Assembly (NCBI GenBank): GCA_964244895.1
Contig: CAXTKV010000091.1
Coordinates: forward strand, 1,823-19,440
Reading direction: 5' to 3'
DNA: 17,618 bases
Origin: an uncultured Deinococcales bacterium
GTDB lineage: Bacteria > Deinococcota > Deinococci > Deinococcales > JAAFIG01
The notes under the pieces were generated by a model. That model saw only the letters and a list, made by a program, of their open reading frames with translations. It was not told the origin of the DNA and searched no databases. Positions 3,506 through 17,306 of the stretch are shown here, piece by piece. The stretch's first letter is position 1; every line of letters starts with the position of its first letter. Made by a program: the position numbers and the translations under genes.

Positions 3506-4078
3506 ATGAAAAAAACCGTCGCCGCATTGATGTCCGCCGTCCTCGCCACCAGCATCGCGCTCGCCGCACCCGTCTTCAAGTTTAGCACCGACCCGAAAGC
3601 CAACCTGATGATGATGGGTCAGACCATCGAACTGAGCGCGTACCCGAAAGCCAAATTGCTTTCCAAGACCGTCACGAATTCCAGCGCGACCCTGGTCTAC
3701 GCGGGTTCTGACGCGGCGGGCGCGTACGCTTTCTACGACAAGGCGCTCAAGTCCGAAGGCTGGAAGGACGCGCCCGCCATGAAGTCCGGCGACGCGATGA
3801 AGTCGGGCGACACGATGAAGTCCGGCGATGCCACCAAGACGGACGACACCATGAAGACCGCCGACGCGACCAAAACCGACAGCACCATGAAATCCGCTGA
3901 CACCATGACCAAAACGGGCGATGCCATGAAGTCCGGCGACACCATGATGAAGGGCGTCGAAGGCATGAAGATGAAGGACGGCAGCTACCAGGGCCACTAC
4001 ACCCTGAAGAACTACACGCTCGGCCTGAGCACGTCCGTCAAGGACAGCAAGGTCTACGTCAACTTCGGCGTCAAGTAA
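3506..4078 (+). CDS. Secreted Met-rich repeat protein (paralog 1, MKSGD(A/T) hexad repeats)
   Basis: GGAGG RBS, signal peptide ending ALA-A, internal mostly 18-bp repeats about 3776-3952, homologous to the 4192..4779 protein. Confidence 0.88.
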   Translation: MKKTVAALMSAVLATSIALAAPVFKFSTDPKANLMMMGQTIELSAYPKAKLLSKTVTNSSATLVYAGSDAAGAYAFYDKALKSEGWKDAPAMKSGDAMKSGDTMKSGDATKTDDTMKTADATKTDSTMKSADTMTKTGDAMKSGDTMMKGVEGMKMKDGSYQGHYTLKNYTLGLSTSVKDSKVYVNFGVK

Positions 4079-4130
4079 ACCAGTCGAGAGAAATGGGCCG
4101 GACGCGTTCTCGTGACTCGAGAACACCGAT

Positions 4131-4156
4131 TGAACCTTTTGCCTTTGGTCTGCGTA
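4131..4156 (+). promoter_or_regulatory. Candidate ECF-sigma promoter TGAACC-N16-CGTA
   Basis: Duplicate of the motif at 3445-3470 with a largely different spacer sequence. Confidence 0.6.
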
Positions 4157-4191
4157 GATCGTCTCGAGTGAACAACTCAACAGGAGGCCGT

Positions 4192-4779
4192 ATGAACAAG
4201 ACCATGAAAATCGCCTTGATGTCCGCCGCCATAGCCACTGCTGGAATTGCGTTGGCCGCACCGGAATTCTTGTTCGTCAAGGATTTGAAATCCAACGGCA
4301 TGATGATGACGATGGGCAAGAAAGAAGTCATCGAACTGGCCGCGTACCCGGCGCTGAAGCTGGCGGCGCGCAACGTTTCGGCCACGCAAGCGACCTTTAT
4401 TTTCAACATCGGCGAGGCCAAAGACCCGCTGCACGGCGCGTTCGATTTCTACGGTAAGGCGCTCGAGAAAGAAGGCTGGAAGGCCGCTGGCGACGCGATG
4501 ATGAAAGATGGCGACACCATGGCCAAAACCGGTGACGCCATGACGAAACCGGGTGACACGATGACAAAGCCCGGCGATACGATGACCAAAACTGGCGACA
4601 CCATGACCAAAACCGGCGATACCATGACCAAAACTGGCGATACCATGACCAAAACTGGTGACGCGATGGGCGCGATGATGAAGCCCCTGAGCGAGAAGTA
4701 CGCGCTCAAGGATCACAGCATCACGCTGAGCGCCAAGCAGACCAAAACGACCGTCGAAGTCGATCTGGTTCTGAAGTAA
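4192..4779 (+). CDS. Secreted Met-rich repeat protein (paralog 2, GDTMTKT heptad repeats)
   Basis: AGGAGG RBS before ATG 4192 (ORF track start 4093 is too early); signal peptide; nine heptads. Confidence 0.88.
   Translation: MNKTMKIALMSAAIATAGIALAAPEFLFVKDLKSNGMMMTMGKKEVIELAAYPALKLAARNVSATQATFIFNIGEAKDPLHGAFDFYGKALEKEGWKAAGDAMMKDGDTMAKTGDAMTKPGDTMTKPGDTMTKTGDTMTKTGDTMTKTGDTMTKTGDAMGAMMKPLSEKYALKDHSITLSAKQTKTTVEVDLVLK
4489..4677 (+). repeat. Coding 21-bp tandem repeat x9 (GD[T/A]MxKx)
   Basis: GDAMMKD GDTMAKT GDAMTKP GDTMTKP GDTMTKT x4 GDAMGAM. Confidence 0.9.
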
Positions 4780-6439: not shown

Positions 6440-7690
6440 TTACCGCGCCCGGAGCGGCACGCGCACGGTTCCATCCGGCAGTTTCAGCACGGCTTCCCAG
6501 TGGCCGCTCATCCAGAAGGGGCAATACGTGCTGAACGACCCCGGCGCGCTGGACGCGATCTTGAACGGGATGGGCTGCATGGCGTGATCGAGCATGTTCA
6601 TCTGGCCGCTCAGGTCAAAATTGATCGGCGCGGGTTTGCCGGAGGCGTCCTCGACGCGCACCTCCAGATTCGTGCCGCCGTCGGTGGGTTTGAACACGCC
6701 GTTCACGATCCAGTTTGTGGTGCGTTCGGAAAAAGTGACCTCGCTGCGCAGGGTCACGCCAGGTTCGGGTGGGGGTTGCGTCACCAGGTAACCGCTGGCC
6801 AGCAGCACACCGACCAGCAGGGCGCTCTCGACCCGCATGACGCGACGGAATTTTTCCAGGTTGGGCGCGGTGCGTTGGCGGGTCAACAGCGGCAGCGTGC
6901 GGAACCGGTTGTCCCAGGCGATGCTCAACACCAGCGCCACGATGACCAGCTTGACCAACAACGATTGCCCGTAGCTCGAGCCGGTCAGGGCGCGCAGGGC
7001 GTAGACGTGAACGATGCTGGCGTACACGCCCGTGGCGGTCATGGCGATCACGGCCATCAAGCCGATGGCGGAGACGCGTTTGAGCGCCTCGATGTTCGGT
7101 TCCAGGTACTTCCAGCCCGAAGTCGGCGAGAACGCCAGAAACCCGACCGCGCCGACCCAGGCGACCATGGCGGACAGGTGGATCAGATCGGAAAAGAACG
7201 TGAAGCTGGCCCAGCCGTCCACCCCGGCGTGGCTGGTCAGGCTGAGCGTGGCCAGCACCGCCACGCTCAGCACGCCGTGCAGCACGCGATCCGTGATGCC
7301 TTCGCCGGGTTCGGCTCGAGACGCGATACCCAGTTTGCTCGAGCCGCCCGTATTTTTCGTGATCCCCAATCCCAGCCCGAAGACCGCCAGCGACAGAATG
7401 ACTCGCGCGATCGTGGCCGTACCGTGCCTGGAACCCGTGGTGTACGACCAGAAGGTCGGGAAGTCTAGCCCGGCGTAGACGCGGTTGGCGGTGAACGCGA
7501 CATCGGTGATGCTCGAGCCGATCACGACGACCGCACCCGCCAGAAGCGCCAGCTTCAACCAGCGCTCCAGCGCGTCCGGCACGGCGCTCGTCCAGACGTG
7601 GCGCGCGAATACGCCCGCGCCCAACAGCAGCACGCACCCGGCGAACAGACCGAAGCGGATCAGTGCAGGAATCACTTCAGGTGAGAGCAA
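6440..7690 (-). CDS. copD: CopD-family copper uptake membrane protein fused to a C-terminal YtkA-like domain
   Basis: SLTSHAG, DLIHLSAMVAWVGAV, YGQSLLVKL, RVESALL motifs; C-terminal MNMLDHAM...MSGHW; GGAGG 5 nt before TTG at 7690. Confidence 0.88.
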   Translation of the reverse strand: MLSPEVIPALIRFGLFAGCVLLLGAGVFARHVWTSAVPDALERWLKLALLAGAVVVIGSSITDVAFTANRVYAGLDFPTFWSYTTGSRHGTATIARVILSLAVFGLGLGITKNTGGSSKLGIASRAEPGEGITDRVLHGVLSVAVLATLSLTSHAGVDGWASFTFFSDLIHLSAMVAWVGAVGFLAFSPTSGWKYLEPNIEALKRVSAIGLMAVIAMTATGVYASIVHVYALRALTGSSYGQSLLVKLVIVALVLSIAWDNRFRTLPLLTRQRTAPNLEKFRRVMRVESALLVGVLLASGYLVTQPPPEPGVTLRSEVTFSERTTNWIVNGVFKPTDGGTNLEVRVEDASGKPAPINFDLSGQMNMLDHAMQPIPFKIASSAPGSFSTYCPFWMSGHWEAVLKLPDGTVRVPLRAR

Positions 7691-7717
7691 ATGCGCCTCC
7701 GGGTCTCGAGAATACCG

Positions 7718-7834
7718 TTCTTGCTCACAAGACAGCACCTAACGGGCTGTTCGCGCTTCTTGCTCACAAGACAGCACCTAACGGGCTGTTCGCGCTTCTT
7801 GCTCACGGGATAGCACCTAACGGGCTGTTCGCGC
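7718..7834. repeat. 39-bp tandem repeat x3 inserted in an ACCGTCC-family REP
   Basis: TTCTTGCTCACAAGACAGCACCTAACGGGCTGTTCGCGC at 7718, 7757 and a variant at 7796; flanked by GAGAATACCG and TCCCAGACGC. Confidence 0.92.
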
Positions 7835-7888
7835 TCCCAGACGCCCAGCAGCAAACCCTGTGCTGGACGGTGGTTCAGTGATATCAAC

Positions 7889-8368
7889 TTATTTCATACC
7901 GTCGAGGTGAAAGTGAATGAAGCCCTTTTCCACGTGCGTGTCCACGCTGGTGACTTGAAATGCCACGACGTACACGCCGGGCTGTCTCATGCCCGGTTTG
8001 AGCGCCAGCGTGACGGTCTTGGTCTGGGCGGGCGTGCCGGGCGCGTATCCGGCATCCACGCGATCCTTGCCATCCGTCTTGGCGCTGATGGCTTTGTTCG
8101 CGATTTGCTCGGCCACGTCATCCATCGATGAAGCGCTCATGGCCTTGCCGTTTTTCATCATCGATTCCATCGGGGCGTAGACGACCTTGAAGACGGAAAG
8201 TTTCGTCTCGAGCGGCTCGTCGAAGGTCAGGCTGACGGTTTTCGGCATGACCGCGACGTGCGCGTGGTCCTTGGGCGCGCTGGCCTTGACGTTCGAGTGC
8301 GCCAGCACGATGCCCGCGGTGCCTGCGGCGGCGAGTACAGCGGCGATCGCGAGCGGTTTGATGTTCAT
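7889..8368 (-). CDS. copC: CopC-family periplasmic copper-binding protein (Met/His-enriched)
   Basis: Signal peptide VLA-H, S.P.D, LTFDEP, PGVYVV...SVDTH; AAGGAG RBS. Confidence 0.9.
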   Translation of the reverse strand: MNIKPLAIAAVLAAAGTAGIVLAHSNVKASAPKDHAHVAVMPKTVSLTFDEPLETKLSVFKVVYAPMESMMKNGKAMSASSMDDVAEQIANKAISAKTDGKDRVDAGYAPGTPAQTKTVTLALKPGMRQPGVYVVAFQVTSVDTHVEKGFIHFHLDGMK

Positions 8369-8394
8369 GTATCTCCTTGCGCAGCCGTTTCACC

Positions 8395-8477
8395 CGAGGG
8401 ACGAGGAATCACGCGAACTCGAGGAACGAGAAATTCTGCGTATTCGAGGGACGAGGAATCCTGCGTATTCGAGGAAC
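8395..8477. repeat. 25-bp tandem repeat, about 3.3 copies
   Basis: CGAGG(G/A)ACGAG(G/A)AAT...GCG.A.T at 8395, 8420, 8445, partial at 8470. Confidence 0.8.
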
Positions 8478-8519
8478 ACCGTCCAGCACGAGGTTTGCGA
8501 TTTGCGTGCTGGACGGTGT
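8476..8519. repeat. ACCGTCC-family REP-like inverted repeat (uninterrupted reference copy)
   Basis: ACACCGTCCAGCACG / CGTGCTGGACGGTGT perfect 15-bp arms, 14-nt loop. Confidence 0.85.
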
Positions 8520-8524
8520 GGATC

Positions 8525-9007
8525 TTACTTCTTCTCGAGCGCGAAGCGCATGAAGCCGCTGGTCGTGTGCGTGTCCACGCTGGTGAGCTTCCACATTACG
8601 ACGTACACGCCGGGCCTGATCGTGCCAGGTTTGACGTTGAGCGTCACGGTTTTTGATTCCGCCATCGTGCTGGGCGCGTACCCGGCATCCACGCGATCCA
8701 CGGTGTCCGTCTTGAGCGCCAGCATCGTGTTGGCGAACTTCTCGACGATATTGTCCGCCGCTTCGTCGGGCAGTTCCTTGCCGTTTTTCATGATGGCTTT
8801 CTCGTCCATCCAGTAGATCTTGAAGCTCGAGACTTTCGTTTCGACGGCCTCGCCGAAGGTCAGTTGCACAGTTTTCGGCAGGGCGCTCAGCGTGCTGCCA
8901 TCCTTTGGGATGCTGGATTTGATGTTCGCGTGCGCCAACGCGATCCCGGCGGTGACGGCTGCGATGACGGTCAGGCCGGCCAGTGCGATTCGGTTTTTCA
9001 TGGTCAC
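8525..9007 (-). CDS. copC: CopC-family copper-binding protein
   Basis: ALA-HANIKSSIPKDG, LTFGEAV, PGVYVVMWKLTSVDTH; start may be ATG 9001 given the AGGAG spacing. Confidence 0.9.
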   Translation of the reverse strand: MTMKNRIALAGLTVIAAVTAGIALAHANIKSSIPKDGSTLSALPKTVQLTFGEAVETKVSSFKIYWMDEKAIMKNGKELPDEAADNIVEKFANTMLALKTDTVDRVDAGYAPSTMAESKTVTLNVKPGTIRPGVYVVMWKLTSVDTHTTSGFMRFALEKK

Positions 9008-9033
9008 TCCTGTTGTCTGAAGGGGAATGCAGT

Positions 9034-9480
9034 TCAGTTGGGTTTATAGCGGAACACCAGCCAATCATCGGTGGTGTGCGTGTCCACGCTCAGCGCGCGC
9101 CACATCACGACGTACCAGCCGGGTTGCAACCTCGGTTTGAGCTTGACCTGAAGGCGCGCGGCGCTCGGAACGTCCGTGGCCAGGCCGTCGTCAGCGCGGG
9201 CGGATTCGTCCCCTTTTTTGTCCAGTACTTCGTCCATCAGCGCCTCCGCGTCCTTGCGAGCGGCGTTCGCGTCTGTCGGGTTGGTTTGGAGCCTGTAGAC
9301 CTTGAAGACTGAAAACTTAACCTCGAGCGGTTCAGAAAATTCCAGTGTGACGGTTTTCGTCAAGCTCGCGATGGTCTGCCCGTCAGCGGGTACGGATTGC
9401 ATCAGGTTGGAATGCGCCAGCGCGACCCCGGCGATGGCGAAGCTCGCCAGGATCGCACCGAGCGCTCGGGGCTGGATCAC
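9034..9480 (-). CDS. copC: CopC-family copper-binding protein
   Basis: GTG 9480 overlaps the ycnI stop (GTGA); ALA-HSNLMQSVPADG, LEFSEP, PGWYVVMWRALSVDTH. Confidence 0.9.
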   Translation of the reverse strand: MIQPRALGAILASFAIAGVALAHSNLMQSVPADGQTIASLTKTVTLEFSEPLEVKFSVFKVYRLQTNPTDANAARKDAEALMDEVLDKKGDESARADDGLATDVPSAARLQVKLKPRLQPGWYVVMWRALSVDTHTTDDWLVFRYKPN

Positions 9481-9938
9481 TTGATCTCGACGCGCGACGC
9501 GGGCGTTTTGCCTTTCGGGTCTTCGTCCGCCCACTTGACGACCGTGCCATCGGCGTAAGTCTGGTCAACCTTGAACAGCAGCGTGCCGGGCTGGTCGGGG
9601 TTCTTGGCGCTGAACATGAAGCGCGCGAATTCCTCGGGCTGAAGGGTACCCTTCCAGGTGACGGTCGTGATCAATCCATTGGCGTCTTTTTCTGTGCTGT
9701 GCGTCCAGCCCGGCAACTGTCCAAAGGTGGACACGGTCAGTCCGGCGGGCACGTACAGTTTGACTTCGGTGGTGGCCATCGGTTTCTCAACCGGGACTTG
9801 CAGGCGGTAGGTCTCGTACGCGCCAGCCTTCGATTCCGAAAGGCCGACATCGGTTCTGACGGTCGCGTGCGCCAGGGCAATGGTGGCGACGGCGGCCACG
9901 AGCGCGGCGCTGGCCGCGATGATGGTGTTTTTGAACAT
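9477..9938 (-). CDS. ycnI: YcnI-family (DUF1775) copper-binding protein, no C-terminal TM anchor
   Basis: ALA-HATV, LQVPVEK, PGW, VTWKG, FKVDQTYADGTVVKW; GGAGG RBS. Confidence 0.9.
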   Translation of the reverse strand: MFKNTIIAASAALVAAVATIALAHATVRTDVGLSESKAGAYETYRLQVPVEKPMATTEVKLYVPAGLTVSTFGQLPGWTHSTEKDANGLITTVTWKGTLQPEEFARFMFSAKNPDQPGTLLFKVDQTYADGTVVKWADEDPKGKTPASRVEIK

Positions 9939-10060
9939 GGTGTCCTCCGGGTGATGACTCGAGCATCCGCGCCCGGACGGTCAGTTTGAAGGCCGTCCTG
10001 CGCGAGCGATTGTAGAGATGGTGCCGACTCGAGAGACGGCGCGAGAACCCAGGCTCGGGT

Positions 10061-10501
10061 TCAGGCGTCCGTCAAACCCGGCGGTGGCGCTCGAGATTGA
10101 ACGCTGCCGCGATGCCAGCATTGAACGTGTAGCGCGGCGCGATCCGTTAAGCGCGCGACCATCCCGGCGCCCGAGGCTCTGGTTGAAACCGGGTCGGGTG
10201 AGCCGCTGACCAGCGCGGGCGCACCGCACAACGGGCAATCGCGGTGATCGTGCCCGACGTGATCACCCTGAGCGTGCGAAACGCTCTTCGGTGCTCGAGT
10301 CTGAACCCGCGCGTGATCGCGGTGGTGATCCGAGGAATCAATCAGCTCGAGGGCTGGTAAGACCGCGACCTCGAGCGTGACCGGGTCGCGCAACGCGAAG
10401 GCGCTGCTGGCCAGGACGATCAGCCAGGCGGCCAACCACGATCCCGCACGCCCGATACTTTTTTGGGCGGCGCGAATCTGGCGTGGCTTGAGCGCGATCA
10501 T
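10061..10501 (-). CDS. DUF2946-like leader protein (CruR/CutF-type) with CxxC and C-terminal RAPP motif
   Basis: Hydrophobic signal-like segment, His-rich stretch, DCPLC, ends QSRAPPPGLTDA; directly upstream of ycnI-copC-copD; TAGACT 8 nt before ATG. Confidence 0.8.
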   Translation of the reverse strand: MIALKPRQIRAAQKSIGRAGSWLAAWLIVLASSAFALRDPVTLEVAVLPALELIDSSDHHRDHARVQTRAPKSVSHAQGDHVGHDHRDCPLCGAPALVSGSPDPVSTRASGAGMVARLTDRAALHVQCWHRGSVQSRAPPPGLTDA

Positions 10502-10560: not shown

Positions 10561-10619
10561 ACACCGTCCCGGACGCGGTTTTCTGGTGTCAAGAGAACAC
10601 CGTCCTGGACGGTGTTCTC
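10561..10619. repeat. ACCGTCC-family REP-like elements
   Basis: ACACCGTCCCGGACG then GAGAACACCGTCC-T-GGACGGTGTTCTC (10593-10619, 13-bp arms). Confidence 0.8.
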
Positions 10620-10656: not shown

Positions 10657-12213
10657 TCAAAGCAACAAACTGCCGCGCGCCTGCATCGGTTGCGAGAAAA
10701 TCAGGAGCGTCAAAGCCACGAACACCACGATCAGAATCAACTGCGGCGCGATGGCCACCACGTTCACCTTCAATCTCACGGTGCGCCGGTACGCGGCCCA
10801 GACGCCCGCCGCCAGACCCAGGTAAGACAGCGCGACCTGATAGATGAACGCCTGATCGACCCTGGAAACCGTCGGTGGGGGCGGTTGCGGCAGGTTGATG
10901 CCCAGCCTGAAGAGCGCGTTGACCGCGTTCGGCCAGAGCGTCGCGTAACCCGTCAAGAAGTGGTACAGGTAATGCCCTGCCCAGGCCGCCAGCGCGAGCG
11001 GCAGCATCACCGCCGCCCAGTCGCGCAACCTCGAGAAGCCCTGCCCGCCGAGCGAGCCGGACAGCCTGGCCGCCAAGAGCGACAAACCCACGCCGCCGCC
11101 GATGCCGACGGTCTGAATGATCAACAGCAGGATCGTCTGGTCGCGCGTGCCCAGCAGCCTGGAAAGCCATTCGGCCAGATTGAAAAAAGCGGGGATCATG
11201 GCGAACGCGTTGACCAGTCCCGCCCAGGCCAGCACGGTCACGAAGAGCGACCAGTCGGATTTCGGGCGCAGGGCTTCGGCCTCGCGGGTCGGGATGCGGA
11301 ACTCGAGCGCCACGTTGTCGTAAGGGCAGGCCCGAACGCAGTTCAGGCACAGCGTGCAATCGGTGTTGGACTGGATGGCGGGCACGAACAAGTCCGTCTC
11401 GCAGCCGGGGAAGGTGCCGTAACTGCGGGATTTGATGCTTTCCAGGCTCGAGTCGATGGTCGAGACGGCGCTCGGGGCTTGCAAGCTCGAGGCGCCCGCC
11501 GAAACCATCGGCAATTCCAGCATGACGTGATCGGCGCGGTGACCGAACAGTGGGGCTCTGGACGTGGGCGTTTCCACGCGACCGTTCAGGCAGTATTTGC
11601 CCTCGCAGGAGTTGCAAACGTTCTGGTCAACAGCCGTGATCTGCGTCGGGCTCGCGCCGGACAGCGCGAAATTGAAATTCCCCAATGGACAGACGTACTT
11701 GCAAAACGTCCCGACCGGAAAGATGGCATCCGTCAGCAAGGCCACCGTGAAGTACCCGATGATCAACCAGGCCGTCAGCCACGGGCTGGCCCACAGGCTG
11801 AAATGCTCGTAGCTGAACAAGAACACCAGCGTCAGTCCCAGCACCAGGTACTTGTTGCGCAGGACTTTCGGCCATTCGGGTTTGAAATTCAGTTTCTCGA
11901 GCGCACCCTTGATGAGCTTCGATGGCCCTCTGGTCAGCATCAACGGGCAGGCCGCGCAGAACAAATTCCCGAAGACCGCGATGGCGATGCCGACCAGCCC
12001 ACGGTAATGCACCCAGACGCTGACCGTGGCCACGTTCACCGGCGCGACCTGACGGCCCGTCATGCCGTCGTAGACGGCCAACATGGCGATCAACAACAGC
12101 GGCACTTGCAGCGCGAACCGGGCGTAGCGCCAGCGCAGGAACGCGCCCAGGAGCGGCGCGCGCAGCACGTCGAGGCGGCGGCGCGGCGCGTGCGTGGGCA
12201 GGGCGACGCTCAC
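10657..12213 (-). CDS. Membrane polyferredoxin / 4Fe-4S binding protein (NapH/NosR/CcoG-like superfamily)
   Basis: FCAACP and FCKYVCP (CxxxCP-type), CNSCEGKYC, CTLCLNCVRACP, many TM helices; start GTG 12213 (GAGGG RBS) or ATG 12246. Confidence 0.88.
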   Translation of the reverse strand: MSVALPTHAPRRRLDVLRAPLLGAFLRWRYARFALQVPLLLIAMLAVYDGMTGRQVAPVNVATVSVWVHYRGLVGIAIAVFGNLFCAACPLMLTRGPSKLIKGALEKLNFKPEWPKVLRNKYLVLGLTLVFLFSYEHFSLWASPWLTAWLIIGYFTVALLTDAIFPVGTFCKYVCPLGNFNFALSGASPTQITAVDQNVCNSCEGKYCLNGRVETPTSRAPLFGHRADHVMLELPMVSAGASSLQAPSAVSTIDSSLESIKSRSYGTFPGCETDLFVPAIQSNTDCTLCLNCVRACPYDNVALEFRIPTREAEALRPKSDWSLFVTVLAWAGLVNAFAMIPAFFNLAEWLSRLLGTRDQTILLLIIQTVGIGGGVGLSLLAARLSGSLGGQGFSRLRDWAAVMLPLALAAWAGHYLYHFLTGYATLWPNAVNALFRLGINLPQPPPPTVSRVDQAFIYQVALSYLGLAAGVWAAYRRTVRLKVNVVAIAPQLILIVVFVALTLLIFSQPMQARGSLLL

Positions 12214-12266
12214 GCTCGAGCCCTCGGAAGACCGTTCAGGACACATTTCGCTCGAGATAGAAAAAC

Positions 12267-12281
12267 ACCGTCCTGGACGGT
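12267..12281. repeat. ACCGTCC-family short palindrome
   Basis: ACCGTCC-T-GGACGGT. Confidence 0.65.
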
Positions 12282-12316
12282 CTTCAAAGGACTCCGACCT
12301 CGAGCGAACCCGTCAA

Positions 12317-12688
12317 TCACGGTTGCACCCCGAAGCGGTACTCACCCGACATCTTCTCGCCGTTTTTCTCGGCGGTCACGATCAGCACGTAATCTCCAGC
12401 CATCTGAAATTCCAGGTCTTGCGCCTGGTAGACGCCCTGTCCGATCTCCTGAGCGATGCGAAGCGTGGGCACCATCCCGGCGTGCGTCATGGTGTTCTGA
12501 ACGCTAACTTTCGCACCTGTCAACGGGTTGCCGGCCTGCACGACCTTGAAAATAAACGAGGTCGGGCCAGCCCCGGACGGCGCGATCTTGGTTTCGGGCA
12601 GGATCACCAGCTTGTTCGGGTCGGGCGGCGCGCACGCGACCACGACGGCGGCGAGCAAGGAAAGGAACAGGATTCTGAGCTTTGGCAT
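12317..12688 (-). CDS. YtkA/FixH-like lipoprotein
   Basis: Lipobox VVAC; PLTGAKV, MTHAGM, GVY...FQMAGDYVLIV. Confidence 0.85.
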   Translation of the reverse strand: MPKLRILFLSLLAAVVVACAPPDPNKLVILPETKIAPSGAGPTSFIFKVVQAGNPLTGAKVSVQNTMTHAGMVPTLRIAQEIGQGVYQAQDLEFQMAGDYVLIVTAEKNGEKMSGEYRFGVQP

Positions 12689-12758: not shown

Positions 12759-13268
12759 TCAGGCCGTGGCGGAGGGTTCGGTCGAATCGGGTTTGGGTCG
12801 CCGGATCAGCACCCAGGCCAGCACCGCCAGCGCCACCAGGATCGGGAAGGCCAGCAGCGCCAGCAGGAGCGGTGTGGTCGGGGCTCCGGCGCTGGAAGGA
12901 GGCAGGATCAGCCGGACGGAGGATTTGAGCGGCCAGTTGACGGTCGCCTTGGCCTCGAGCGATTCGCGCGGGAAGGTCGAATCGCGCACGATCAGCGTCC
13001 ACTCGCCCGCCGGGGCTTTCGGTAGGGGCGCTGTGTACTCGCCGTCCGCCGTTTCCATCAACGGCCCCTGGAAGGCGTCACCCTTCTGGTTCATCAGCAC
13101 GTAGGCCATGCGCGCGCCGTTGATCGGGTAGCCTTCGACGCTGCCTGCCAGCAAGGCCAGCCTGCCGGATTGCTCGAGCACGTCGAGGTTCACAGAGGTC
13201 AGGTGCGCGCTCGCGGTGGATGCCGCAGCGAAGGCGAGTACGGTCAGGAGTGCGCGGATACTACGCAT
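12759..13268 (-). CDS. Secreted Ig/YtkA-like protein with N-terminal His and C-terminal TM anchor
   Basis: ATG 13268; signal peptide ASA-HLTS; DGEY...AGEWTLIV; C-terminal hydrophobic helix followed by RRPK. Confidence 0.78.
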   Translation of the reverse strand: MRSIRALLTVLAFAAASTASAHLTSVNLDVLEQSGRLALLAGSVEGYPINGARMAYVLMNQKGDAFQGPLMETADGEYTAPLPKAPAGEWTLIVRDSTFPRESLEAKATVNWPLKSSVRLILPPSSAGAPTTPLLLALLAFPILVALAVLAWVLIRRPKPDSTEPSATA

Positions 13269-13452: not shown

Positions 13453-13530
13453 TTCTTGCTCATGGGACAGCACCTCACGGGCTATTCGCGCTTCTTGCTC
13501 ATGGGACAGCACCTCACGGGCTATTCGCGC
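13453..13530. repeat. 39-bp tandem repeat x2 inserted in an ACCGTCC-family REP
   Basis: TTCTTGCTCATGGGACAGCACCTCACGGGCTATTCGCGC at 13453 and 13492, between ACACCG and TCCAGCACGC. Confidence 0.92.
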
Positions 13531-13577
13531 TCCAGCACGCATGCTTGAAAACGCGTGCTGGACGGTGTCGCCCGAAT

Positions 13578-14081
13578 TCAGGCAGGTTGGGCGCGTCTCG
13601 ACAGCCTTCCCAGCACCGCGCCCGTCAGCGCCAGCGCCAATGCCAGAATCACGGCCCAGACCGCGTACCCGACGGGTTGAACGTAGGATGGGACGGTGTT
13701 CTCGAACTGGTTGCCCAGCACGATCGGGGCGCTGGTTTCGGTCTTTTCCAGGCTGAAGGCTTCGCGGCTGATGTACCCGGCCTGCCCAGGGCCGACGCGG
13801 GCGTAGTAGCGCCAGACGCCTTCGGTCATCGGGGCGGTCGCGCGGTATAGGCCGGGGCTGGTGGCTTTGATCGGCAGGCTCAGGCGCTGGTTGAAGCCGA
13901 GCTTCCAGGCCCAGACCAGCAGCGTGTCGGTGGTGGGTTCATTGAGGCGGAACTCGAGTTGCGCGGTCTGGTCGGTCAGCATTTTGGTGGTCAGCGTGCC
14001 CTGGATCGCGCCAGCGGCGGCGTTGTTAAGCGAGCCAGAGAATCCGATGATGGCCAGTACGACCGCGATGATCCGTTTCAC
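13578..14081 (-). CDS. Secreted Ig-like protein with C-terminal TM anchor
   Basis: GTG 14081 overlaps the upstream TGA (GTGA coupling); MKRIIAVVLAIIG signal peptide; PGLY...EGVW; C-terminal TM. Confidence 0.8.
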   Translation of the reverse strand: MKRIIAVVLAIIGFSGSLNNAAAGAIQGTLTTKMLTDQTAQLEFRLNEPTTDTLLVWAWKLGFNQRLSLPIKATSPGLYRATAPMTEGVWRYYARVGPGQAGYISREAFSLEKTETSAPIVLGNQFENTVPSYVQPVGYAVWAVILALALALTGAVLGRLSRRAQPA

Positions 14082-15145
14082 GCGTTCACCCGCCCGTTCG
14101 GACTGACGCTCTGGCTCGAGGTCGCAGGTTCGATCTGCGCCGCCACCCGAGCCGCCAGCGCGCCCAGGAGCGCCGCCAGCGCCAGTCCCGCCGGAGCGCC
14201 GATGGTGAGCGCGTCCGCCGTCCAGGGCATCACGCCGTACAGGTTGACGGCGAAATAGTTGATGACCAAGGTGATCGCTCCGGCGACCAGCCCGACCAGC
14301 CAGCCGGGCAGCTTGCGCGCGACCATCGCGTCGATCGCCAACGCGCTCAGGATCAGCACGGGCACGGCGGGTTTGGTCTGTCCGGCCAGGTCGATGCTGC
14401 TGGTGTACGCCAGCCCGCCGAGCAGCCCCAGGCGCACCAGCGTGAAGATCAGCGCCGCCACGGTCGCGCTCCAGAGCCTGGGGCGCAAATAAGAAATCAG
14501 CGCCAGCGGAAAGACCGTCAATCCGGCCAGCAGCATCGGGTGGAAGTAAATCTCGAACTGCGTGACGTTGAACTCGTATTCGGCCAGCAGCAGCACCAGC
14601 GATCCGAGCAGCATCGCGGCGAAGAACACGGTGAACCTCGAGAAGAGCGTTTTGCGCGCGGCGGTATCCGCGATCTCGCGCTCCAGGTGGCTCGAGATCA
14701 GGCCCGCGAACGAGAACAGCCCGAATCCGGTCAGCCCGACCAGGTGCATTGGGCCCCACAGGGTCGCGTCCACGCCGAAGAACCGGTGCCAGAGTTCGTC
14801 GGCGGGCGCGAAGAACAGGATCATCGCGGCGGCCACCACGCCGACCAGCAAGCCCGGATGGAGCGATCGTCCGGCGATCCGCAGGTGCAGGTTGCTCTGG
14901 CGTTGGTCGCGGATCAGCCCGTACAGGCTGACCATCAGCACGATCAGCATGGCGCCGTAGATGAAGTTGTGCGGCATGGTGAAGAAGGTATCTCGGCCCT
15001 TGTCGATGTGCCAGGCGATGTCCCAGTTGACGCCGACCAGGCTGGACAGCGCCCCGAGCGCCATGGCGGGCAGCACACCGAGGTTCAAAAGGTCGCGCGT
15101 GTTGGTGTCGGGTTTCGAGGCGGGAAAGTGCGGGCTGGCCTGCAT
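14078..15145 (-). CDS. Polytopic membrane protein with two PmoC/AmoC-like DxxWH...H motifs
   Basis: AGGAGG RBS before ATG 15145; WDIAWHIDKGRDTFFTMPH and ADELWHRFFGVDATLWGPMH; about ten hydrophobic segments. Confidence 0.85.
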   Translation of the reverse strand: MQASPHFPASKPDTNTRDLLNLGVLPAMALGALSSLVGVNWDIAWHIDKGRDTFFTMPHNFIYGAMLIVLMVSLYGLIRDQRQSNLHLRIAGRSLHPGLLVGVVAAAMILFFAPADELWHRFFGVDATLWGPMHLVGLTGFGLFSFAGLISSHLEREIADTAARKTLFSRFTVFFAAMLLGSLVLLLAEYEFNVTQFEIYFHPMLLAGLTVFPLALISYLRPRLWSATVAALIFTLVRLGLLGGLAYTSSIDLAGQTKPAVPVLILSALAIDAMVARKLPGWLVGLVAGAITLVINYFAVNLYGVMPWTADALTIGAPAGLALAALLGALAARVAAQIEPATSSQSVSPNGRVNA

Positions 15146-15265: not shown

Positions 15266-15332
15266 TTTGTGGTTCCGACACATTCCAGGAACTTGCGTTC
15301 TGGACAGCATTTAGGTAGGCTCTGAGACACGA

Positions 15333-15354
15333 ATGCGAGCAAACACTCAGGTTT
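15333..15354. promoter_or_regulatory. Candidate TetR operator 2 overlapping the tetR start
   Basis: ATGCGAGCAAACACTCAGGTTT; its core GAGCAAACACTC is the exact reverse complement of operator 1 core GAGTGTTTGCTC. Confidence 0.5.
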
Positions 15355-15959
15355 CAAGAACCGAACCGCGCCGAGAACCCCGCCAGATCCGCAGCCAACG
15401 CCGGGTCGAAAAAATCCTCGATGCCGCCCTGCAAATCTTCGCGGAATCCGGCTTCGAGGCCGCCACCACCAACGCCATCGCGGAACGCGCCGAGGTCAGC
15501 ATCGGATCGGTCTACCAGTTCTTTCCAAACAAGGCGGCGCTGCTGATTCAACTCAACCTGCGCTGCCTGGACGACCTGCGCGTCACGCTCAAGGACGTGT
15601 TCGTGCCGGAACTCGAGCAATTGCCCCGGCAAGTCATGATCGAAGTCGTGATCGACGCGCTCGGCGGGTTCCAGCAGCGCAACTGCAACGCGTTGCGCGT
15701 GCTGAACACCGCCCGCGTACCCGAACTGATCAGCTCCGCCGATACCGTCGCCACCGAAGCCTGCCGTCACGTCGAACGCCTGCTGGAAGTGACCTACCCC
15801 GACCTCGAGCCCGAACGCCGCGCGACCATCGCCAGCGTGTGCTTCACCGCCACGGACGCGCTTTTTTACCTCTCCTCCATCGGTGATGCCGCCGCGCAAA
15901 ACCGCGTGCTGAACGAGATCAAGATTCTGCTGAAAGCCTACATCGGCACGCTCGAGTAG
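15333..15959 (+). CDS. TetR/AcrR family transcriptional regulator
   Basis: PRQIRSQRRVEKILDAALQIFAESGFEAATTNAIAERAEVSIGSVYQFFPNKAAL helix-turn-helix. Confidence 0.95.
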   Translation: MRANTQVSRTEPRREPRQIRSQRRVEKILDAALQIFAESGFEAATTNAIAERAEVSIGSVYQFFPNKAALLIQLNLRCLDDLRVTLKDVFVPELEQLPRQVMIEVVIDALGGFQQRNCNALRVLNTARVPELISSADTVATEACRHVERLLEVTYPDLEPERRATIASVCFTATDALFYLSSIGDAAAQNRVLNEIKILLKAYIGTLE

Positions 15960-16232: not shown

Positions 16233-17306
16233 ATGAAACACCTCAGATTCGCCGCGACGCTGATCGCCGTCTGCCTCGGTTCTCGAGCCCTGGCGCACGT
16301 CAAATGGTTCTACCGCGGTGAACGCCCGCCGCTGGATTGGGCCTCGTTCTTTCAACCGTTGCCGCTCGCGTTCGCGCTCGGAACGGTGATCGCCGTGATC
16401 GGATTGTGGTTCCTGCAACGCGCGCGCAGCGGTCGCGGTTTCCTGCCGACGCTCGAATTTTTTGGCGCGACCCCGGAGAGGCGCATGGGATTGTACGGCT
16501 TCGCCCCCGCCATTTTGGGGATTCACCTGGCGGTTCCGTTGTTCGTTTCCGGCGTGACCGGGCATCTGTTTTCGCCGGACAACGCCCTGCCGACGGGCTG
16601 GAATTACCTGATCGGGCTGGCGCAGGCGGGCATCGCGCTGTCCTTTTTTTACGGCGGCCTGACCCGGATTGCCGCGCTGTTGCTGGCCTGGTTGTGGTTG
16701 CTGGGTGCGGTACTGCTGGGGCTCGAGCCGATGATGGACAACGCGCTGGTGCTGGGCTTCGCCGCCTTCTTTTTTCTGGCCGGTCGCGGCCCGATCAGCG
16801 TGGATCGCCTGATCCTGCCGCGTTTTGAACCGCCCGCCAACCTGATGCGGCACGCCGTGAACGCCCTGCGGGTCGGCGTGGGCGTCAGCCTGGTCGCGGC
16901 GGCCTTCAGCGAGAAGCTGGCCAACCCCGCGCTGGCGCAAGCCTTTCTGGGACAGTACGCGCTCAACTTCACGTCGGCCCTGGGGATTCCGTTGCAGAAC
17001 AACGTCTTCATCCTGGCGGCGGGCACGGTCGAATTGCTGGTCGGGTTGTGCCTGATCTTCGATGTCTTCACGCGCGAGATCATCCTGGTGGCCTGGGTGC
17101 CGATCAACCTGACGCTGACAATTTTTGACTGGACGGAACTGGTCGGGCACCTGCCGATCTACGGCGCGATGGCGGTGCTGCTGGTCTGGGAGAACACGCC
17201 AGAAAACCTGAGCTTGTGGATTCGCGGCCTGCGCGAAGGGCCGCTGGCGATCCCAAAGCCGGAAGCTCCAGGCTCAGGAAGACCGTCCAGCACGCTTAAA
17301 GCCTGA
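16233..17306 (+). CDS. DoxX-like polytopic membrane protein with signal peptide and N-terminal HVKWF
   Basis: ALA-HVKWF, GRGPISVD, SEKLANP, GTVELLVG, ELVGHLPIYG; TAGGCT 6 nt before ATG. Confidence 0.85.
   Translation: MKHLRFAATLIAVCLGSRALAHVKWFYRGERPPLDWASFFQPLPLAFALGTVIAVIGLWFLQRARSGRGFLPTLEFFGATPERRMGLYGFAPAILGIHLAVPLFVSGVTGHLFSPDNALPTGWNYLIGLAQAGIALSFFYGGLTRIAALLLAWLWLLGAVLLGLEPMMDNALVLGFAAFFFLAGRGPISVDRLILPRFEPPANLMRHAVNALRVGVGVSLVAAAFSEKLANPALAQAFLGQYALNFTSALGIPLQNNVFILAAGTVELLVGLCLIFDVFTREIILVAWVPINLTLTIFDWTELVGHLPIYGAMAVLLVWENTPENLSLWIRGLREGPLAIPKPEAPGSGRPSSTLKA

Follow-up and report, generated by a model that had tools for sequence, protein, structure and literature searches.

The stretch analysed here, a window of 17,618 nucleotides from contig CAXTKV010000091.1 of an uncultured Deinococcales bacterium (assembly GCA_964244895.1), carries on its reverse strand a gene (14078..15145) for a membrane protein of 355 amino acids. 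Its ten helices (model pLDDT 91) comprise a core similar to PmoC/AmoC, the C subunit of copper membrane monooxygenases (CuMMOs), and a domain similar to PmoA/AmoA, the A subunit, fused in one chain. An AGGAGG ribosome site precedes the ATG of this open reading frame (ORF); because of this site, and because homologues are mostly 320 to 365 residues long, an alternative start at 15310 giving 410 residues was rejected. The next gene (13578..14081, reverse strand), here called the partner, overlaps the stop codon of the main gene by four bases and encodes a protein in which a signal peptide precedes a beta-rich domain and a single helix forms the C-terminus. Judged by sequence and model, the main protein is very probably a single-chain C-A homologue of the CuMMOs.

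Two Asp/His/His motifs were the starting point of the original prediction, and both were confirmed at their positions in the translated ORF. The first is a CuC-type ligand set, D42-x3-H46-x12-H59 (14969..15022, reverse strand), in which W45 is also present and R51/D52 match the invariant RD of PmoC. The second is a CuD-type set, D116-x3-H120-x13-H134 (14744..14800, reverse strand), with W119 and with Asp where PmoC has Asn. All six ligands are complete in 120 of 120 sequences (the query and 119 homologues), in 158 of 161 sequences after a 70% identity filter and, in the widest set, in 458 of 461 aligned members covering both motifs; loss of the ligands among homologues, named beforehand as one observation that would speak against a metal site, was not what was found. 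Besides the two triads, R51, D126, W130 and P132 are kept in the family. When the bacterium's own genome was translated in six frames, only 4 of its 46,006 ORFs had both patterns at a distance of 65 to 85 residues, and two of these are family members; the genome carries three members in all, on contigs C91, C94 and C71. Metal is very probably bound at the two sites.

The PmoC/AmoC-like core (residues ~20-158; 14672..15088, reverse strand) consists of four helices arranged as two duplicated hairpins. In AmoC, CuC is formed by D134/H138/H151 and CuD by N205/H209/H223, with spacings of x3/x12 and x3/x13 and 71 residues between the sites (PMC12801151). The same spacings occur here, with the sites 74 residues apart. 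Among 42 C subunits extracted from 121 pmo/amo loci, using a pattern that included x12 and x13 and left the site-to-site distance free, the distance was 71 in 21, 74 in 18 and 72 in three. With PmoC, AmoC and HmoC (PF04896, TIGR03078; 9cl6_C, 9pxf_G, 9leg_C, 7yzy_C) the protein appears to share the four-helix core, and it shares the CuC triad with its W, RD and P, and the second triad, whereas it differs in the CuD Asn, in its visible internal symmetry and in the fused A-like domain. Bacterial PmoC has an N-terminal part that is missing here, and archaeal AmoC is likewise truncated at its N-terminus (PMC9038741).

That the likeness to PmoC/AmoC reflects homology was borne out by profile-profile, hidden Markov model (HMM) and PDB-sequence profile searches. 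A profile of 18 diverse family members placed three AmoC chains at the top of 177,635 PDB sequences (E = 5.2e-4, 0.0087 and 0.012); an earlier, narrower family profile had found nothing useful in the PDB sequences. Conversely, an HMM of 36 real PmoC/AmoC sequences, run on a pool of 1,827 proteins, had 108 matches at E ≤ 0.1, every one of them among the pool's 376 family members. Profile-profile comparison of the family with PmoC gave a probability of 76 and a score of 38.7 (shuffle maximum 19.2), or 38.1 against 28.8 when blocks were shuffled. The N-terminal half of a subgroup of 18 sequences around P0308, a relative 31% identical to the window protein (E = 3e-30), reached a probability of 95.5 with the PmoC profile. 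In structure, PmoC chains align with model residues 6-163 (Z 8.0-8.3) at 17 to 18% identity, the top identity among four-helix matches.

An internal duplication had also been proposed, and this part of the proposal stood: the first hairpin of the family matches the second with a probability of 96 (E = 1.6e-9; score 43.0, shuffle maximum 24.5). The second motif, taken originally as an additional copy of CuC, is instead the counterpart of the CuD site of PmoC. When the two halves of PmoC were compared with each other, the score was 13.8, inside the shuffle range, so that the duplication is clearer in the family than in PmoC. We infer that the family has kept a symmetric state since lost by PmoC, although the symmetry may have originated in an independent duplication within the family.

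The C-terminal domain (residues 158-345; 14111..14674, reverse strand) has six helices in the fold of the S-components from transporters of the energy-coupling factor (ECF) type, and it lacks about 36 residues of the PmoA loop before the last helix. Folded alone, it was modelled with a pLDDT of 94.5. A Foldseek search with this domain placed chains from particulate methane monooxygenase (pMMO) as well as from ammonia monooxygenase (AMO), all of them PmoA/AmoA, at ranks 1, 2, 5-8, 10-13 and 15 of 350,542, or 11 of the first 15 (probability up to 1.00, TM 0.44-0.58, best E 0.097). On realignment of Foldseek's 855 top chains, the first twelve were PmoA/AmoA (VIA Z 12.9-14.4; root-mean-square deviation 3.8-4.7 over 171-177 of 188 residues), and S-components scored no more than 10.5. 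The chains 7s4h_B, 6cxh_B and 9leg_A thus share the fold, as well as an acidic motif after the first helix and a position following C; the family domain differs in its 10 to 12% identity, in the deletion and in being covalently joined to C. The motif, E189-x-[DE]-[FY] after helix 5 (14570..14581, reverse strand), is aligned with the DWDF of PmoA, with E189 on the first Asp; E189 is present in 215 of 216 sequences; in the set of greatest diversity the figure is 89 of 112. The order C then A is that of the xmoCAB operon (PMC6215863).

Sequence comparison pointed the same way. Of 2,010 pooled proteins, 11 were matched by a PmoA HMM at E ≤ 0.1; they all belong to the pool's 493 family members (best P0308, 1.7e-5), and the best value in a reversed-sequence control was 0.75. 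The C-terminal half of the P0308 subgroup matched PmoA over 172 columns (E = 2.1e-4; score 34.5, block-shuffle maximum 20.3), and the cross pairs of this subgroup (N-terminal half with PmoA, C-terminal half with PmoC) gave null results. This evidence tips the balance towards PmoA over an S-component. The presence of a PmoA-like domain in the same chain, together with an anchored partner gene in the position of pmoB, means that the protein is not the stand-alone protein, acting without canonical subunits, that it was first taken for.

It is very unlikely that the core is joined to an unrelated membrane anchor whose likeness to PmoA arose by convergence, the six-helix shape being a common one. 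Such an anchor would fit the weak whole-family sequence signal to PmoA, the S-components that tie with PmoA in Z and an Atlas search, in which the C-terminal half, like the whole protein, matched unnamed clusters only. It would leave aside that, among all PDB chains, the best match of the half behind a PmoC-like core is PmoC's natural partner, that the operon order is kept and that the acidic motif is in register. S-components (5edl, PanT, FolT, BioY, ThiT) share the six-helix fold with the C-terminal half (Z 8.8-13.4), which differs from them in standing behind a metal-site domain and in its invariant PmoA-like acidic motif. Among about 100 hand-picked neighbouring genes there was no ECF ATPase or T-component, modules that, being shared, can be encoded elsewhere. 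As PmoA/AmoA and S-components match the same domain of the model, it is implied that PmoA itself has the S-component fold. No paper stating this was found in the open literature, and the main text of a survey of the fold does not mention monooxygenases (PMC11109136).

Of 17 close orthologues, 16 are followed by the partner, the remaining one lying at a contig edge, and the partner is fused to the main protein in 195 of the 376 pool members; behind more distant paralogues, different anchored proteins come next. From the gene overlap and the fusions, it is predicted that the partner binds the main protein. Its relatives show weak YtkA/FixH matches, and against the PDB it gave nothing better than E 0.15. 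A PmoB homologue was considered and rejected: the partner could be aligned on the first domain of PmoB and its helix, but the score of 14.6 was below the shuffle mean of 15.5. Canonical pmoA, pmoB and pmoC were not found in the bacterium's own genome, which is 91% complete (best PmoB score E 0.21; the control of one of these searches gave no signal). The CuMMO of 'Candidatus Angelarchaeales', whose function is a prediction, and archaeal AMO likewise have a truncated C, the order C-A-B and a short one-domain B (PMC9038741). In those enzymes, however, the genes are separate and all three CuB histidines are present, whereas here C and A form one ORF, and the partner, separate or fused, has neither CuB ligands nor detectable homology to PmoB. 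A search of 401 Thermoplasmatota genomes for the Angelarchaeales enzyme as an intermediate gave as its sole PF04896 match another member of the window-protein family, and this candidate was set aside.

Several observations weigh against a CuMMO relative. In single-sequence searches of Pfam, NCBIfam and the PDB, the window protein had no useful match; it matched no AmoC or AMO model, and the cut-offs of PF04896 and TIGR03078 were not reached. The search against PF04896 proposed at the outset was negative for the protein itself and weakly positive for its relatives (7 of 104, best 3.7e-4), while YibE/F was touched by 11 of 104 (best 7.4e-8). The fold of the N-terminal domain is generic: cytochrome b561 reached Z 11.2, and 7yzy_C (Z 8.3, root-mean-square deviation 4.2, 150 residues aligned, core within the whole model) was tied with generic bundles. 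Foldseek, also proposed at the outset, found no match at E ≤ 0.001 for the whole model (PDB and viral libraries) or for the C-terminal domain, and it was only with the domain alone that PmoA/AmoA chains led. A wide structure search with the whole model divided it into a four-helix bundle and an ECF S-component-like domain and had neither PmoC nor PmoA among its 50 rows. In a wide search, S-components also came above the PmoA representative (5edl Z 13.4, 3chx_B 8.4); as 5edl at 13.4 and PmoA at up to 14.4 are about one unit apart, shape alone does not separate the two. The P0308 subgroup was chosen after its score was known, and whole-family C-terminal profiles are at the shuffle edge with PmoA (E 0.03-0.08). 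Whereas the first hairpin matches the CuC half of PmoC strongly (36.6), the second hairpin alone scores 18.4 with the CuC half and 10.7, which is not significant, with the CuD half; its identity as CuD therefore comes from the register and spacing seen when whole domains are aligned. The partner has no conserved His and so no CuB-type histidines. Finally, 460 of 461 aligned members have Asp as the third CuD ligand, which is Asn in the PmoC set that was fetched.

Asp for Asn would make both sites harder, and they would then also suit Zn or Fe. The protein might accordingly be a non-copper dimetal enzyme, whose symmetric triads bind one of these metals and act on a membrane lipid by hydrolysis or oxidation. 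We regard this as unlikely. It is consistent with the clear two-fold symmetry, the missing CuB, the lack of copper genes at most loci and the hydrolases and FabH-like genes among the neighbours, but the closest characterised relatives use Cu at these positions and there are several independent links to copper genes. The metal is probably copper.

In this genome the main gene does head a copper cluster, as had been claimed. Three CopC proteins, CopD and YcnI (DUF1775) are encoded 4 to 8 kb downstream on the same strand and, with a DUF2946 protein, make up a copper-uptake cluster (6440..10501, reverse strand). The arrangement is not general: a position beside cop genes is conserved in only 3 of 21 Deinococcota loci, the window included, and a NapH-like gene lying between shows no linkage to family genes in the family-level relatives tested (5 of 5), so a conserved link to the cluster was rejected. 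Copper probes matched those 3 of 21 loci, compared with 6 of 301 tiles of the own genome. Of 76 distant loci they matched 14, a single cupredoxin-like lipoprotein accounting for 11; the probes were derived from the same loci, and loci of related organisms are not independent. Elsewhere, CsoR, CopZ and CopA adjoin orthologues in two loci (L120, L127) and CtaA/CtaB are near the gene in two others (L117, L126). The cupredoxin-like lipoprotein is paired with an unnamed membrane protein of ~420 residues beside the family gene in its 11 distant loci (L016:9802-11435, L055:5999-7701 and nine more).

These neighbours, and the S-component fold of the C-terminal half, would suit a protein for the uptake, delivery or sensing of copper, in which Cu would stay only briefly at the two sites and be moved, or its presence signalled, by the S-component-fold half, with no catalysis. 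Such a role is doubtful. No copper probe matched in 18 of 21 Deinococcota and 62 of 76 distant loci, although distant homologues may escape the probes; the best structural matches are PmoA, which has the same fold and is not known as a transporter; the conserved triads, with R51, D126, W130 and P132, fit a pocket; and the regulators beside the gene are mostly of the TetR or MerR type, with dehydrogenase fusions that suggest metabolism.

By analogy with its relatives, the protein may be an oxygenase or oxidase, likely acting on a lipophilic substrate, to which we give a probability of about one half. As such it is like a CuMMO core at work but is outside the enzyme family, lacking a CuB subunit and separate genes, having Asp for Asn and falling below the cut-offs; xmoCAB defines the CuMMOs, among which singleton xmoC genes are known (PMC6215863). 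Which copper site oxidises methane or ammonia, and whether subunit B is needed, have long been debated, and isolated pMMO and AMO lose activity; CuC and CuD form the proposed active-site pocket (PMC11725843). In hydrocarbon monooxygenase, loss of CuC ligands abolished activity and a change at CuB did not (PMC13058606). Together, the proposed pocket and this result favour a copper oxygenase without CuB that acts on a hydrophobic substrate. By their Lys and Arg content, the loops that follow helices 2, 6 and 8 would lie inside, with the loop after helix 4 balanced, so that both triads and E189 would face outward.

The substrate channel of AMO is a five-helix bundle to which C contributes its last four helices and A its first, and quinol is its proposed reductant (bioRxiv 10.64898/2026.08.31.748207). 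Helices 1-5 of the window protein might rebuild such a channel; Cu would be loaded at CuC, at CuD or at both, on the membrane's outer face, and quinol-pool electrons would serve to activate O2, as has been proposed for AMO. The partner could cap the protein from outside as a structural stand-in for subunit B without the CuB site. The substrate would be fat-soluble and larger than methane, a lipid or other hydrophobic small molecule being the best guess.

A small-molecule substrate is also favoured by the regulators, by the dehydrogenase fusions and by flavin monooxygenase neighbours. The main gene is divergent from a TetR-family gene (TetR_C_15; 15333..15959, forward strand), as is its L122 orthologue, and this is likely its regulator; a promoter scan found no site. 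Of 76 distant loci, 28 have MerR genes and 19 have TetR genes, for the most part next to the family gene and divergent from it. In 4 of 493 members the chain includes a fused short-chain dehydrogenase, and a flavin monooxygenase gene lies directly downstream in two loci (L008, L014). A further point against the oxygenase is that dehydrogenases near 16 of 76 loci are not clearly above the background (40 of 301 tiles). A subterminal alkane pathway of dehydrogenase, flavin monooxygenase and esterase was considered and dropped as too thin, with flavin monooxygenases at 3, hydrolases at 5 and short-chain dehydrogenases at 16 of 76 loci. A fused archaeal member of 560 residues stands right after two FabH-like genes (L252:88-3237; family assigned by eye).

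The family is large. A profile search found 3,086 clusters at 50% identity (E ≤ 0.001), an upper bound since the profile spans the fused partner part too. In a partial scan, 581 of 600 matched genome stretches encoded a relative, and the total is estimated at about 2,400. The 80 stretches that were kept come mostly from Actinomycetota, but also from Deinococcota, Chloroflexota, Rokuibacteriota and, once, from Thermoplasmata. Matches were found in 37 of 301 genomes of the bacterium's own phylum and in 9 of 9 of its own family, a tally that includes the unpublished G252, a genome that enters no other result here. Atlas clusters include Nitrososphaerota and Bathyarchaeota, which is a lead only, and carriers include heterotroph genera grown in laboratories, such as Nocardia and Saccharopolyspora. 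Every database name encountered was 'hypothetical' or 'uncharacterized', and the open literature (subscription papers and supplements lay outside its scope) yielded no description of the family or of a C-A fusion.

It is possible, and we suggest it tentatively, that the family is a fourth and far larger branch of the CuMMO superfamily: an enzyme of one or two genes, with the CuC/CuD pocket only and no CuB, whose symmetric hairpin pair and S-component-fold domain represent the ancestral state of methane and ammonia monooxygenases, and which oxidises C-H or N-H bonds in thousands of bacteria and archaea that live heterotrophically and are not known for such reactions. With a natural C-A protein that is one chain and lacks CuB, the CuC/CuD pocket could be examined by itself. 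An origin of CuMMOs from a duplicated metal hairpin and a vitamin-transporter fold is suggested, and up to ~3,000 unnamed clusters (50% identity) may be a sign that oxidation reactions at membranes have been missed in soils and seas.

Further genes surround this pair. Downstream of the partner is a second anchored beta-rich protein (12759..13268, reverse strand), with a His right after the signal peptide, whose relatives follow family paralogues in three loci (L113, L129, L130). A YtkA-like lipoprotein and a NapH-like 4Fe-4S membrane protein (10657..12688, reverse strand) are linked to family genes not only here but also in L129 and L130. The latter has 529 residues (10657-12246) and YtkA-like neighbours; we presume that it may be a CcoG/FixG-type copper reductase, or else an electron donor. 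In the copper cluster, the three tandem CopC paralogues (7889-9938), which together with YcnI stand ahead of CopD, exceed the 92-position Pfam model through a central insertion. Downstream of the TetR gene, 16233-17306 encodes a DoxX-like membrane protein with a His directly after the signal peptide.

At the other end of the window, two secreted paralogues (3506-4078 and 4093-4779) with repeats rich in Met, Lys, Asp and Thr and no Pfam match are possible binders of Cu or Ag, and 152-1738 encodes a Ser/Thr kinase whose N-terminus bears a zinc ribbon and whose C-terminal membrane part is DUF6232-like. Intergenic palindromes resembling repetitive extragenic palindromic elements lie at 8476-8519, 10563-10579, 12267-12281 and 13531-13562, and their 12-base core has 964 occurrences, spread over 248 contigs of the genome. 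Beside them is a 39-base tandem unit, in two copies at 13453-13530 and three at 7718-7834, with 16 copies on 10 contigs.
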